DNA of 41,120 nucleotides from a virus (Duplodnaviria > Caudoviricetes). Shown here one piece after another: positions 3,579 through 15,583 of the stretch. Below the pieces are notes generated by a model. The model searched no databases and was not told where the DNA came from. It saw only the letters and a program-made list of their open reading frames with translations. Positions within the stretch are counted from its first letter, which is position 1. Every line of letters starts with the position of its first letter. A program made the position numbers and the translations under genes. The stretch is from positions 1 to 41,120 of IMG/VR virus record IMGVR_UViG_3300020045_007165; one strand, written 5' to 3'.

Positions 3579-3841
3579 TGTCATTTTTAAGCCTTCTCAC
3601 AAACCCAAAAACAATAGCCATTATAGCTATCTCATCCTTTATCGGTGGATGGCACGCACAAACTATTTATGATGGATACATCGCTGACAAAGGAAAAACA
3701 AAGGTCATCAAGAAACTGGGGGATGGACAAAATGAAATCATCAAATTCAATAGTGCTGCCGATAAAGCAATAAGAGCGTCAAAAGATGATAAATGTCTTG
3801 ATAGTGAGATACCGAAAGAAGTTCTCAATCTTCTAAAATAA
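3578..3841 (+). CDS. Putative i-spanin (Rz-like)
   Basis: N-terminal TM ending GGW, helical region, C-terminal Cys (KCLDSEIP); position in lysis cassette. Confidence 0.65.
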   Translation: MSFLSLLTNPKTIAIIAISSFIGGWHAQTIYDGYIADKGKTKVIKKLGDGQNEIIKFNSAADKAIRASKDDKCLDSEIPKEVLNLLK

Positions 3842-4331
3842 CATTTATATTCGCAAATTCACCAAACACATCTTGGGCTGCTTTGTTGTAGGCTAGAGCT
3901 GCATCTCGCTCATTCTTATAAACCCCTAAATGAACTCGTATTTTGTTAATTGAAATGTAGGCTACCCATATTTTACCGGGCTTATGCCAGCACACACCTT
4001 TGTATGTACTACTATAACTTCCTTCAATTGGCTCTTTTTGCTTTTTCTTATTTTGATTATTTTGCATGGATGTACATATCCTTAAATTGCATTTTCTGTT
4101 GTCAAGTTTGTCGCCGTTTATATGGTCGGTCGACATACCTTTAGGTGTATTCAAAACAATCCGGTGCATCATAACTACTTTCCTCCCCATTCTCTTTGCA
4201 GCGTACCCTGAACAGTAATGCCATTTTCTTTGAGTTAGGTGATGATAGTCTTCATCATCGACAATGGCAAAAACTCCCTTTGACACAGGTATTGCTTTTG
4301 AATTTGGGGGGAGTATAATTGAATCAGTCAT
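3825..4331 (-). CDS. HNH-AP2 homing endonuclease
   Basis: FAIVDDED, MHRIVL, TDHINGDKLDNRKCNLR (HNH); SSTYKGVCW...W.A.I...HLG....AALAYNKAA..FGEFA (AP2). Confidence 0.95.
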   Translation of the reverse strand: MTDSIILPPNSKAIPVSKGVFAIVDDEDYHHLTQRKWHYCSGYAAKRMGRKVVMMHRIVLNTPKGMSTDHINGDKLDNRKCNLRICTSMQNNQNKKKQKEPIEGSYSSTYKGVCWHKPGKIWVAYISINKIRVHLGVYKNERDAALAYNKAAQDVFGEFANINVILED

Positions 4332-7984: not shown

Positions 7985-8214
7985 TCCACATCCTCCCGCG
8001 CTATAATCGCATAAACGGCCATAATCCGCTTTTGAATATCTTTCTTGGCATTATCAATGGATTCTTGCAGCCCACCGACAGCATCCTCCAATGCCCCTAT
8101 ATCCTCTTTTGCAATCCTATCGGCAAATATCCTCATTTCATTGAAATAATGCTCCGATTCGCTATCAAGGCGTTGCGTTAAATCAAATGCTTCGGTGTAA
8201 TCTAAGGGGCGCAT
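7981..8214 (-). CDS. Hypothetical coiled-coil protein
   Basis: RBS GGAG; acidic, helical. Confidence 0.7.
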   Translation of the reverse strand: MRPLDYTEAFDLTQRLDSESEHYFNEMRIFADRIAKEDIGALEDAVGGLQESIDNAKKDIQKRIMAVYAIIAREDVE

Positions 8215-8231
8215 GGGTTTATCTCCATTTG

Positions 8232-8378
8232 TTATTTATTTAACTCTTTACATGAAACAAGTTCGATATTTTTTACTTTGGCTTCTTTGCATATCTTGAA
8301 TGGGTCAGCGGGCAAAGTTGCTACCGCCATCAAAAATCCAAAGATGATACAAATTATCATTTTTGCGTAATCTAACAT
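8232..8378 (-). CDS. Small exported or membrane protein (48 aa, paired Cys); first gene of the left operon, not in the track
   Basis: MLDYAKMIICIIFGFLMAVATLPADPFKICKEAKVKNIELVSCKELNK; RBS AAGGA. Confidence 0.6.
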   Translation of the reverse strand: MLDYAKMIICIIFGFLMAVATLPADPFKICKEAKVKNIELVSCKELNK

Positions 8379-8441
8379 GGGTTTATTCCTTTGTTTGTGT
8401 AGCAGCAAAGTATTTCTAAATTCCCCTGCCGCTACAAAACA

Positions 8442-8523
8442 ACCCTAGCATGGGTGAAAAGGTATTGCAACAAAAAAGATAATATTTTTATCTATTGACT
8501 TATCAATTAGATAGGAATATTAT
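8442..8523. promoter_or_regulatory. Divergent promoter hub 1 with candidate operator
   Basis: Rightward TTGACT(8495)-17-TATTAT(8518); leftward TTGCAA(8470)-17-TAGGGT(8447); imperfect inverted repeat tatctattga-ctta-tcaattagata over the rightward -35. Confidence 0.65.
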
Positions 8524-8545
8524 CACCATAAAGGAGTATATTTTT

Positions 8546-8728
8546 ATGAAATCAATCGAGAAAAAACTAGTTCAAGTGCGTATTCCACATGCATTATATA
8601 AAGAAATAGAAGAACACGCCGAAATACATGGGCGCAGTAAAGGTAGCGAAACGGCAATTCTAGTGCAGGAAGCTATGGCGGCGCGGAATAATACAGTATT
8701 TCAGTTTGCAAAGCCAAAGAAGAAATAA
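8546..8728 (+). CDS. Arc-family ribbon-helix-helix repressor
   Basis: VQVRIPHALYKEIEEHAEIHGRS; RBS AAGGAG before ATG 8546. Confidence 0.85.
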   Translation: MKSIEKKLVQVRIPHALYKEIEEHAEIHGRSKGSETAILVQEAMAARNNTVFQFAKPKKK

Positions 8729-8734
8729 CGAAAC

Positions 8735-8817
8735 ACCACCCCGCGCTTGCAGGGTGAGGGGTGGTTAGGGGATAAAAGCATTGCGCGAGTCGCGTTTACG
8801 CTTTTATCCCTGATTTT
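8735..8817 (+). terminator. Tandem hairpins after the Arc gene (terminator/attenuator candidate)
   Basis: accacccc/ggggtggt (8 bp) and gggataaaagc/gcttttatccc (11 bp) followed by tgatttt. Confidence 0.5.
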
Positions 8818-8841
8818 AACGGGTGAATGGAGGGTGAGAAT

Positions 8842-8976
8842 ATGGATGCGATTCTTTATACTTTAGTGTTGGCTGCTTGTATGTGTTTTTGCTTAGGACA
8901 CATACACGGCAGGCTTGAAAAAATATGGTTAGCCCTAGACGAGCTTGACCGCAAGAAATTGGATGCAGAAATATGA
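8842..8976 (+). CDS. Small N-terminal TM protein (44 aa); not in the track
   Basis: RBS GGAGG; MDAILYTLVLAACMCFCLGHIHGRLEKIW... Confidence 0.55.
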   Translation: MDAILYTLVLAACMCFCLGHIHGRLEKIWLALDELDRKKLDAEI

Positions 8977-9053
8977 ACTCATTTAGCCTGATACCCAATT
9001 AACCCCAACCCCCGCCCAGCAGGCAAAACCGATGCAAAGAGAGTGAGGAAGAA

Positions 9054-9254
9054 ATGACCGCAAAAACCATATTTGCTCTATTATGCCTCGCGCAAGGAAT
9101 TGCCGTTGGCTACGGATTTTATCAAGCAAGCATAAACGATAGCAAGAAATGGGCTATTTTCTGCGCCATTATGCTTGGCGGCATGTTTATGGATTTTCAA
9201 TTCGCAAAAACAAATTATATCCTTATGGGATTTTTGAAAGGACTTGGTTTATGA
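9054..9254 (+). CDS. Small 2-TM membrane protein
   Basis: RBS GAGG; two hydrophobic segments. Confidence 0.65.
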   Translation: MTAKTIFALLCLAQGIAVGYGFYQASINDSKKWAIFCAIMLGGMFMDFQFAKTNYILMGFLKGLGL

Positions 9255-9968: not shown

Positions 9969-10179
9969 CCTTCATAATCAATTCAGCTTTGCGTTCCAAC
10001 TCCAAAAGCCTATCATCCACACCCACGTTAATACCTTCGGCCACTTTCATCCATATGGCAAGTAGGTCTAGGGTTTTATTGATATTAATGAGCGTGGCAG
10101 TATTGGCTTGCTGGCATCTGAATATCTTTTCTAGCGCATCACGCATATCTTTGGGGGTTGATAAATCTATTACGGTCAT
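9949..10179 (-). CDS. Hypothetical coiled-coil protein
   Basis: ATGA-coupled end of the leftward recombination operon. Confidence 0.65.
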   Translation of the reverse strand: MTVIDLSTPKDMRDALEKIFRCQQANTATLININKTLDLLAIWMKVAEGINVGVDDRLLELERKAELIMKATRHYP

Positions 10180-10382
10180 GCACGTTCCTTAATTAACCAG
10201 TAGCGCGAGCGTAATCCGCCATGTGTCGAAGTCTCTTTCCGTGATGTTATGTGGTAGCCTAAATCTTTCAGCTCACAGACACGTTTGGGCAGACTATGGC
10301 CTTCGTGGAAATCATCAAAGGTCACTCCAATGCGTTTCTTCTTCCTAAGCGTTGCAAGGACTCGTTCTAAGCATGGTTTCAT
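10176..10382 (-). CDS. Small winged-helix DNA-binding protein
   Basis: L..RV.EL...GY.I.......RYWL pattern; RBS GAGG. Confidence 0.65.
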   Translation of the reverse strand: MKPCLERVLATLRKKKRIGVTFDDFHEGHSLPKRVCELKDLGYHITSRKETSTHGGLRSRYWLIKERA

Positions 10383-14072: not shown

Positions 14073-14474
14073 ATGTACGCAAGAAACGAAACCACTGAAT
14101 CACCCATAGACATATCCAAAATAATCGACCTATCCATAAGCTATTGCCACAATGCAATGCCGTTTATGGACTTACAAAACCCCCGCATGTGGGTGAAGGA
14201 TGGTTGTAATATAGAATTGGATATTATTCCGGTGATGAAAGAAGTGATGCAGAAGAAAAAAGGCATTACATGCTATAAATATTTTTCCACCCCTATCTAT
14301 GTTGCAAGGGATAAAAGGCTCGTCAAAGAAAAGTATGAAGCTGAAAAACCCGCCATTGATTGCGAGGCTTACATAAAGATTTACCAGTGGAAGCGTGATA
14401 GAAATATGCCGCTTAAAGAGGCGGAATTAAAGGCTTTACAGGAATATGAAAATAAGCTTGCAATTCAGAAATAA
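14073..14474 (+). CDS. Protein resembling the C-terminal (DnaD-like) domain of phage replication initiators, without an N-terminal HTH
   Basis: W...GC..E.DI.P.........I....YF...I..ARD.R pattern recalled from alphaproteobacterial phage initiators; replication-module position. Confidence 0.45.
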   Translation: MYARNETTESPIDISKIIDLSISYCHNAMPFMDLQNPRMWVKDGCNIELDIIPVMKEVMQKKKGITCYKYFSTPIYVARDKRLVKEKYEAEKPAIDCEAYIKIYQWKRDRNMPLKEAELKALQEYENKLAIQK

Positions 14475-14486
14475 TAGGCGTATAAA
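14458..14486 (+). promoter_or_regulatory. Sigma70 promoter driving the long non-coding region
   Basis: TTGCAA(14458)-17-TATAAA(14481). Confidence 0.7.
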
Positions 14487-14554
14487 TAAGAAGCTCCCGC
14501 GAAGCTATTAACTTCCGAGAGCGTGGTAACTAGAACTTTGCGGGTGGTAGTTAC
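14484..14554 (-). ncRNA. Predicted ~70-nt two-hairpin antisense RNA
   Basis: Own promoter upstream; hairpin GUAACUA/UAGUUAC, then hairpin GCUCUCG-GAAG/CUUC-G-CGGGAGC followed by UUCUUAUUU (intrinsic terminator). Confidence 0.65.
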
Positions 14555-14895
14555 AGAGGCATTATGCATAAAGCAGAGCCTTCTGTCAAACAAAAACCTC
14601 ACAAAAACTAATTGCTACAATATAGAGACACGTTTTGTACGTCATTGCTCTCGGCTAGGGCGTGTTTTAAGAGGCTGCAATAGCGGTAGGATAGGCAGCA
14701 TAGAGTGAGTCGAAAAGGGAATCTCTAACCTAGGCGCAGCACTGCGTTAAGTCCCAAAGCTAGAGGCAGGTGATAATGCTCTCTGGTGTGCCTAAGCGAA
14801 AAGCTCCTATACGGTGTTCTTCCCGGCATTAGACTTCATGCTATTAATTTGGCAGGGAGTCTTTTGTACCATCCGTAGCCCCTACCGGTGTTATT
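14492..14895 (+). ncRNA. Predicted ~400-nt structured RNA or long leader
   Basis: No credible ORF; nested helices 14684-90/14881-87, 14691-99/14803-10, 14731-38/14787-94, 14760-65/14781-86, 14701-05/14723-27. Confidence 0.6.
14561..14589 (-). promoter_or_regulatory. Counter-oriented sigma70 promoter for the antisense RNA
   Basis: TTGACA(14589-14584)-17-CATAAT(14566-14561) on the minus strand. Confidence 0.75.
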
Positions 14896-14913
14896 AAGTA
14901 AGAAAGTATCTTT

Positions 14914-15474
14914 ATGGGTAAGTATTGCAAGTTTATGAAGTATGCAGGGGTTGATATCCGTAAGGACGACCCAAACTATCACAAAACCATCATTGATTAT
15001 GTTCAGAACCTTTATGTTTCAAAGTTTGGCAAGAAACGCGATGGTCTTAATTATTGCAGGGCAAAGGCTGTTTTGGGGGTGCATTTTCAAGGATATGAAA
15101 TAACCCATCCTGACACTCGCAATGAAAAGTCAGCTAATCGAACGAAGAAAAGAAGAAATAAGTCTAAAACTACAATACAATCTAAGCCAAACAACCCGCC
15201 CAAGCTAAGTATTGTTAAAGCCAGTTATGCCTGTTCAGATGAGTTTCTTTTGTCCTATGAATGGCGAAAATTAAGATATGCGGCATTGAAGAAAAATAAC
15301 GGCAAGTGTGAACTATGCGGAAACGGCAGGGGAGATGGCGTAAAGCTTCACGTTGACCATATAAAACCGCGTAGAAAATACCCTGAATTGGCTTTGAGCC
15401 TAGAAAATCTACAGGTGCTATGCGAGTTATGCAATCATGGCAAGGGAAACTGGGATGAAACTGATTGGAGGTGA
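14914..15474 (+). CDS. HNH endonuclease (McrA-like, Zn-binding) with long basic N-terminal extension
   Basis: EWRKLRY..L.....CELCG...LHVDHIKPR..YPEL.L..ENLQVLCELCNHGK. Confidence 0.92.
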   Translation: MGKYCKFMKYAGVDIRKDDPNYHKTIIDYVQNLYVSKFGKKRDGLNYCRAKAVLGVHFQGYEITHPDTRNEKSANRTKKRRNKSKTTIQSKPNNPPKLSIVKASYACSDEFLLSYEWRKLRYAALKKNNGKCELCGNGRGDGVKLHVDHIKPRRKYPELALSLENLQVLCELCNHGKGNWDETDWR

Positions 15475-15504
15475 AAATAATTGCAAAATAATTGAAAATA
15501 GGCA

Positions 15505-15533
15505 TTGACACTATATGACTAATGTGTAATACT
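15505..15533 (+). promoter_or_regulatory. Promoter of a three-gene moron-like cassette
   Basis: AT-rich UP region, TTGACA(15505)-17-AATACT, then GGAG RBS. Confidence 0.55.
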
Positions 15534-15583
15534 GGCTTTCAGAGAGGCAATTAGGTCTTTCGGAAAAAATGGAGAAACATTTT

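Follow-up and report, generated by a model that had tools for sequence, protein, structure and literature searches.

At the sequence level, a sense/antisense RNA module proved to be real, conserved and uncatalogued, and it lies at the replication locus of a tailed phage, at which no origin-binding domain is encoded. The DNA analysed, called the window below, is the complete genome of the virus (41,120 bases, with direct terminal repeats). Going by its head and tail genes the phage is a podovirus, and the names found among the relatives of its HNH protein, together with the initiator family itself, suggest an alphaproteobacterial host. The stretch is read here, tentatively and with less than even confidence, as an antisense-controlled, RNA-based replication origin. 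Its features are collected in Table 1.

Table 1. Position of the module and of associated features in the window
Feature	Position	Strand	Basis or remark
Winged-helix gene, 68 aa, HTH_39/HTH_91	10179-10382	-	Pfam
Stand-alone DnaD-like domain, 133 aa (headless initiator)	14073-14474	+	
Predicted sense promoter TTGCAA-17-TATAAA	14458-14486	+	9/12 consensus; overlaps the 3' end of gene 14073
Predicted antisense RNA (~70 nt) with two hairpins and a U tail	14483-14554	-	both ends placed from the promoter and the terminator
Hairpin I: 5'-most hairpin of the sense RNA and putative terminator of the antisense RNA	14493-14522		terminator-like on the minus strand
Predicted switch: 14523-33 pairs locally with 14547-56 or long-range with 14607-20	14523-14620	+	
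Predicted antisense promoter TTGACA-17-CATAAT	14561-14589	-	11/12 consensus
Predicted long hairpin in the variable linker	14625-14668	+	folding
Predicted multi-branched RNA body, core 14702-14872	14679-14892	+	z -2.61; core held in common with phages that are otherwise unlike
A+T-rich stretch behind the body, also the ribosome-binding region of the HNH gene	14890-14913	+	80% A+T
HNH endonuclease, 186 aa	14914-15474	+	PF01844
Promoter TTGACA-17-AATACT, extended -10	15505-15533		separate strong promoter downstream of the module

The sense and antisense units

All the features named in a first-pass annotation of the window were located at the positions it had assigned to them. The plus promoter, which lacks the last T of the -10 box, stood as to its position and its conservation in the related locus L131, but not as to its strength, given its consensus score and the fact that the promoter scanner made no call there. 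Promoters without the final -10 T are frequent in Alphaproteobacteria. The minus promoter, placed by the annotation inside the sense unit, was borne out: it is the joint best among 25 promoter-like sites in 10 kb, five sites in the whole genome score like it (11/12), and L131 keeps its -35 box. Promoter-like sites as a class were not above chance (25 vs 20.7 +/- 4.7 expected).

The predicted antisense RNA (from about 14554 to 14483) folds with a z-score of -3.68, none of 200 shuffles being equally good, and its second hairpin is followed by a U-rich tail and is terminator-like. Because the two transcripts overlap, their complementarity was not counted as evidence. The local and the long-range form of the switch were predicted at -7.6 vs -9.3 kcal/mol in the window and at -7.6 vs -4.9 kcal/mol in L131, and both forms occur in folds of the growing transcripts of the two. 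When 14493-14554 was blocked in the models, the body from 14625 on folded unchanged and no terminator was created; in these equilibrium models antisense binding altered the 5' pairing and left the body fold the same, and neither an antisense-induced terminator nor occlusion of a start codon was found. The sense unit had been described as having no credible open reading frame, which agrees with the state of the 61-codon frame at 14523-14708: it matches no family and shows no conserved coding signature, being stopped after 15 codons in L131.

L131 was found through the domain motif of the protein encoded beside it, that is, independently of the RNA sequence (the comparisons with L131, L134 and L135 cover the locus only). 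It matches window positions 14478-14623 with an nhmmer E value of 1.2e-12. Its plus promoter, TTGCAT-17-TATAAA, is found at the corresponding position, the 17 nt of its spacer being of another sequence, and the counterparts of the minus promoter are TTGACA-18-AACAAT in L131, TTGACG-17-CATAAG in L093 and TTGCAA-17-TATATT in the phage phiGT1. Among the 12 pairs of Hairpin I shared with L131, three are changed on both sides, one is changed on one side and none is broken, and the L131 antisense RNA has the same two-hairpin fold as that of the window. Conservation of promoters and helices in relatives, on which the first-pass annotation had made the module depend, was thus found: both are kept in L131, with the three compensatory changes.

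One contig of run X1 keeps 14455-14607 (4 differences) and 14702-14783 (11 differences), the linker between them (14608-14701) being replaced by 83 other letters. The upstream gene of this contig is a different one, and 1238 other letters replace 14784-15540, HNH gene included, after which the contig rejoins the window at 15541, the right edge of the cassette. In a second X1 contig a homologue of gene 14073 is followed by other sequence instead of the module. What follows the 14073 homologue in X1 record 1, behind window position 14453, is a sequence that we take to resemble a tRNA 3' half read on the reverse strand. Out of 19.9 kb, the DNA run X7 holds only 14618-14873 and the RNA run X12 only 14702-14872; the latter was rejected as proof of expression, being a single contig at a depth of 3.2, and its uncovered parts are uninformative. 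The genes downstream in L131, L093 and L135 also differ from the HNH gene of the window. Since the module is kept while the flanking parts are swapped, it appears to be a unit of its own within a set of exchangeable parts.

The persistence of the module in a relative in which both flanking genes are swapped makes a leader dedicated to the HNH gene unlikely, and the proposal that the RNA controls an HNH nickase was weakened by the replacement of this gene in X1 and by the different downstream genes of the three loci. Rather unlikely, too, is a broader version, in which the module would be an antisense-controlled leader of the downstream operon (HNH and, by read-through, later genes), with replication starting elsewhere or by recombination; we hold in the same doubt its counterpart that the antisense RNA would tune elongation or translation by analogy with the repABC ctRNA or lambda OOP. 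The two-state pairing in the window and L131 is consistent with such a leader, as is the presence of Erf, a Gam-like protein, NinB and RusA, available for recombination-started replication, and the size of the RNA, its promoter and terminator and its position at a replication locus fit a ctRNA as described in the accessible part of PMC6090056. Yet the RNA is retained where the downstream gene has been freely swapped, a further strong promoter, separate from those of the module, is present at 15505-15533, the models contain no antisense-induced terminator or start-codon occlusion, and the headless initiators described below are left unexplained.

The domain at 14679-14892 had been called densely paired. 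It does fold better than shuffles, only modestly so (one of 200 was as good), and "densely" overstated the case; the whole 426 nt gave a z-score of -1.59 (7 of 100 shuffles as good) and 14612-14911 one of -0.72 (12 shuffles). The A+T-rich stretch announced downstream of the body is present (80% A+T over 14890-14915) and is a candidate RNA-to-DNA switch or unwinding zone. The window matched no family in an Rfam covariance-model search and had no real match by BLASTN in phages and plasmids, the three plasmid matches (E 2-5) being at chance level. Alignments of its body with the full-length loci were insignificant (94 of 500 shuffles as good for L093, 398 of 500 for L131), and since this body is not significantly alignable to those of its relatives, the class is defined by position and layout. 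A motif common to L093 and positions 14703-14721 of the window was not counted, the local alignment being insignificant. DNA pattern scans for homologues gave 6, 2 and 9 matches in IMG/VR and 3 in GTDB, all of which were chance on reading; a further scan, whose pattern had been derived in half from L093, returned that contig alone and so was not independent. Neither the window nor L093, L131 or phiGT1 has the G-tract that occurs in 12 of 47 relatives.

Replication genes and the headless initiator

Scanning of 63 ORFs against PHROGs and Pfam revealed no polymerase, helicase, primase, initiator or integrase, within the bounds of profile searches, which can overlook a divergent protein. The recombination and regulatory genes recognised were those for Erf, the Gam-like protein, NinB and RusA and a Cro-like gene. 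When 127 initiator, helicase and primase queries were run against the genome by tblastn, gene 14073 was the sole match, and no iteron array was found in the genome. Both searches uphold the earlier statement that polymerase, helicase, primase and full initiator are missing, and the bona fide initiator with an iteron origin elsewhere, which would have spoken against the module as an origin, was not detected. A lambdoid O/P iteron origin was rejected, since only the C-terminal domain of an initiator is present, without an iteron array. The GC skew tracks the coding strand over the 41 kb, without a turn at the module. GANTC sites were uninformative (3 in the module, 3.0 per kb genome-wide, none in L093 and phiGT1). 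A second gene-poor stretch of lower GC content, with short ORFs only and a local turn of the GC skew, lies at 8214-9149 and is a candidate alternative origin or control region. The genome also has a second endonuclease gene, of the HNH-AP2 type, at 3828-4331 on the minus strand, which is unrelated to the HNH gene at 14914-15474.

Gene 14073 is, judged by its homologues, the C-terminal DnaD-like domain of phage initiators of the DUF1376/HTH type without their DNA-binding head. Its family comprises 45 clusters at E<=1e-10, of 92-159 aa among the matches listed. Residues ~30-84 match the C-terminal part of proteins of 210-470 aa, and DUF1376 or HTH_36 was found at the N-terminus in 16 of the 27 longer homologues scanned. 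The structural model (pLDDT 90.5) resembled the DnaD domain 2i5u (Z 7.0, rmsd 2.3 over 66 residues; rank 2, tied with an unrelated chain) and 2zc2 (Z 5.3), Z values of 5.3-7.0 being within the range common for helical bundles. The gene had no Pfam match, other hints of DnaD were weak, Foldseek found nothing, and sequence searches gave no match in annotated phages, in IMG/VR (as a single protein) or among PDB sequences.

The motif of this domain led to 52 loci: 42 ORFs of at least 225 aa, four short ones near contig ends, two chance matches and four stand-alone genes. Among the flanks listed, the long ORFs with the domain run directly into further ORFs. In L093 and L131 a two-promoter non-coding stretch (about 390-460 nt) comes immediately after the stand-alone gene, with a small nuclease-like gene behind it; in L135 a two-promoter stretch lies ~470 nt further on, and in L134 there is none.

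The 68-aa winged-helix protein (10179-10382) could be a separate DNA-binding partner of the headless domain. A split initiator made of these two, or a body acting as folded single-stranded DNA (a primosome-assembly site or single-strand origin) exposed by transcription, was considered quite improbable; neither is accompanied by iterons. The HTH_39/HTH_91 gene is at hand and phiGT1 has a DnaA domain IV-like gene, but no test connects the small HTH to the module. As to the single strand, covariation and G-T pairs cannot separate it from RNA, as set out for plasmid motifs in the part of PMC5737381 available, yet the promoter and terminator of the antisense unit need RNA.

Non-coding stretches in front of related HNH genes

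The HNH family was followed through 82 fetched loci, from which 22 near-duplicates or loci cut by contig ends were dropped; the remaining 60 were judged by eye. A long non-coding stretch precedes the HNH gene in 47 of them and is absent in 13. The HNH gene would seem to be an exchangeable passenger from a family usually found behind such stretches. Most of them begin with a leader on the same strand that has a U-tract, continue in a body of 150-400 nt and close with a 3' hairpin; we take the leaders to resemble those of C4/IsrK. The 3' hairpin carries a G-tract in 12 of the 47 loci (shuffled mean 1.45), and a minus promoter of at least 10/12 is present in only 7. That most loci have same-strand U-tract leaders, not an antisense promoter, favours control of a downstream operon over the origin. 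Bodies and leaders are mosaic. Folding was of little help: strand asymmetry was weak (39/47 stretches vs 9/13 and 22/47 controls), and so were the body z-scores (mean -0.98, 4/47 below -2).

Headless initiators also occur in two other families, in which 15 loci match only the C-terminal part of phrog_270/9474/9327 and three the C-terminal part of the O-like phrog_678. They lie within 4 kb in 13 of the 47 loci with a stretch and in none of the 13 without (Fisher p 0.027, the classes having been assigned by eye and kin not being independent). Fourteen records that are at least 90% complete have such a stretch. In 11 of them no full initiator was detected: seven have a primase without a detected initiator, three a headless gene only (G001, G005 and, weakly, G003), and one nothing that was detected. 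The other three (G026, G030, G036) have a full initiator, and this coexistence again suits a leader. Two of three complete control genomes have an initiator-type match and G018 has nothing.

Several loci are of interest in themselves. An uncatalogued, strongly covarying RNA family occurs ~370 nt before HNH in L004, L018, L032, L036, L044 and L070, with two-sided changes in 26 of 91 pairs (6 sequences). A related body is present in G009 and G011, which code for a Toprim primase and an SF2 helicase. BLASTN of two related bodies against phages gave no real match. Rfam searches of the HNH-family loci matched none of 18 and then one of 18: L081:1378-1495 is the Betaproteobacteria-1 RNA, in front of HNH, and its genome (G037) has a full initiator-type match. 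Counter-promoter layouts like that of the window, in unrelated sequence, were seen in L062, L072, L080, L042 and L007, the first three having also a long G-tract hairpin and a headless O-like gene.

The association of stretch and nuclease in 47 of the 60 loci could also mean that the two form a mobile RNA-plus-nuclease cassette, or that the stretch is a stable RNA acting in trans, which the nuclease has spread and which lies at the replication locus only incidentally; the RNA would then partner the basic N-terminal part of the HNH protein or a host factor. Both parts of this proposal are improbable. The mosaic bodies and leaders, one body being the Rfam Betaproteobacteria-1 RNA, and the occurrence of a stretch among head genes in Vibrio phages are in line with it, but 13 of 60 HNH loci have no stretch, the module persists without this HNH, and the bodies share little sequence, unlike the scaffold of a protein-bound guide. 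That the body is the only piece of the 19.9 kb in RNA run X12 would fit as well; against this, X12 is the shallow single contig mentioned above and DNA run X7 likewise holds only this piece.

Among annotated phages, the cultured Sulfitobacter phage phiGT1 has a layout like that of the window, with a 641-nt gap containing an antisense promoter, an HNH gene and gp58, in which its annotators noted a match to the C-terminal domains of larger HTH proteins. Over 19000-39466 its annotation lists no polymerase, helicase or primase; gp62 is annotated as DnaA domain IV and could bind an origin. Its replication is not discussed in those parts of PMC7427195 and PMC10386132 that were reached by term searches. 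BLASTN of the gap against phages and plasmids gave no real match beyond itself, and the score of its local alignment with L131 was reached by 8 of 500 shuffles. The motif AG(C/T)GAGGGA is common to the L131 body, the phiGT1 gap and L005/L064/L083. Gaps of 460-525 nt before HNH, with promoter, leader and U-tract, were found in Vibrio phages 2.095.A and 1.178.O and Xanthomonas phage Kintu (L174, L175, L179); in 1.178.O stretch and HNH are among head genes, with a DUF1376 initiator and DnaB elsewhere. MW202674 carries a headless gene and lacks an annotated helicase or primase; five of its gaps were read, and none contains such a stretch.

A possible RNA-based origin and its relation to known systems

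If the stretch is an antisense-controlled origin, the predicted ~400-nt sense RNA would open the DNA and possibly prime replication, the headless DnaD-like neighbour would load the host helicase, and the predicted ~70-nt antisense RNA would damp the origin opening by the sense RNA. The transcript would start at 14493 and its 3' part would stay hybridised near 14860-14910, where the host might take over as in ColE1, through its RNase H and Pol I or else through the restart primosome, while the antisense RNA would sequester 14493-14554 during transcription. The RNA would substitute for the lost origin-binding domain, with the HNH gene as a homing-type passenger.

The origin was preferred mainly because the head of the initiator is repeatedly lost beside such RNAs. 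Counted in its favour were the conservation and compensation in L131, the retention of the module as its flanks change, the headless neighbour, the 11 of 14 complete genomes in which no full initiator was seen, the covarying body family, the ColE1-like geometry and the layout of phiGT1. Counted against it were the full initiators in 3 of 14 complete genomes and the own primase in 7 of 14, the normal initiator of Vibrio phage 1.178.O, gp62 of phiGT1, headless genes without a stretch (L134, one X1 contig, MW202674), the few minus promoters (7/47), the unalignable body of the window and a GC skew without a turn. What keeps the origin below even odds is that there are exceptions on either side, that the window has no G-tract and that no refolding was seen in the models. 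The interpretation given in the first-pass annotation was partly supported: the headless neighbour and the recurrence of headless genes in other families strengthen its replication part, and its HNH-leader part lost ground, with full initiators coexisting elsewhere. A wider generalisation, which we regard as doubtful, is that a widespread class of tailed phages has swapped the origin-binding half of the initiator for a folded transcript by which the origin is opened. The helicase-loading domain would have become stand-alone at least three times in different families, and the RNA would be spread by an HNH nuclease and controlled either by a counter-transcript or by a leader on its own strand.

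Numerous uncultured phages of 35-45 kb have no recognisable replication start, for which the module is a concrete candidate, and phiGT1, a cultured lytic phage with a marine host and the same layout, offers a testable system. If true, the origin would bring ColE1-like logic to tailed phages, assign a function to orphan phage RNAs, Betaproteobacteria-1 among them, and provide new small, tunable origins; if the leader alone holds, the module is an uncatalogued antisense switch.

With initiators of the DUF1376/YdaU and lambda O-like types and with DnaD, gene 14073 shares the C-terminal domain and, as its model tentatively suggests, the DnaD-like fold; it differs from them in having no N-terminal DNA-binding domain and an extra two-helix C-terminal part, and from lambda O/P in that no P-like or helicase gene follows. 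The structured ARRPOF RNA motif of Fusobacterium plasmids (200-350 nt, non-coding) is linked to replication without a rep gene, and no counter-transcript is mentioned in the part of PMC5737381 available; membership was rejected, as the window fails the covariance-model match. The Betaproteobacteria-1 RNA (RF02932) scored 59.8 bits in L081, in the stretch before the same HNH family; at the threshold of 49.4 bits or more the window has no candidate, so that membership was rejected, and one of 24 records matches. A HEARO/omega RNA with IscB was discarded as well, since the 186-aa protein is HNH only, without RuvC, and there is no Rfam match.

Lambda OOP is a short counter-transcript of the replication locus that has a promoter and a terminator to itself. 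The repABC ctRNA (RepE/incA), according to the accessible part of PMC6090056, likewise runs counter to a replication transcript from a promoter of its own and ends at its own terminator. The window resembles both in its predicted counter-transcript (~70 nt, against 50-77 nt, with promoter and terminator, at the replication locus) and differs in having, instead of repC or an O gene, 330 nt of non-coding DNA and an exchangeable nuclease gene. Identity with the repABC ctRNA was excluded, there being no repB or repC in the genome and no Rfam match. In the literature, of which few subscription papers were covered, no RNA-primed, antisense-controlled origin with a headless initiator was found in a tailed phage.

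The closest parallel in design is ColE1, whose long non-coding pre-primer RNA II is met over its 5' end by the shorter counter-transcript RNA I (PMC5043065, in the part available). No homology to RNA I/RNA II was detected with Rfam or by plasmid BLASTN, which gave chance matches only. The window differs from ColE1 in belonging to a tailed phage, in the lengths of its RNAs (~400 vs 550 nt sense, ~70 vs 110 nt antisense, with two hairpins), in lacking a G-tract and in the headless DnaD-like gene beside it, and its priming is a prediction. The likeness, at the level of sequence, lies in the absence of a full initiator, the long non-coding sense RNA and the counter-transcript with its own promoter, and the alternative 5' pairings of the window presumably parallel the alpha/beta/gamma pairings of RNA II. 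R-loop origins of T4 and transcript priming in pAMbeta1 are partial precedents.
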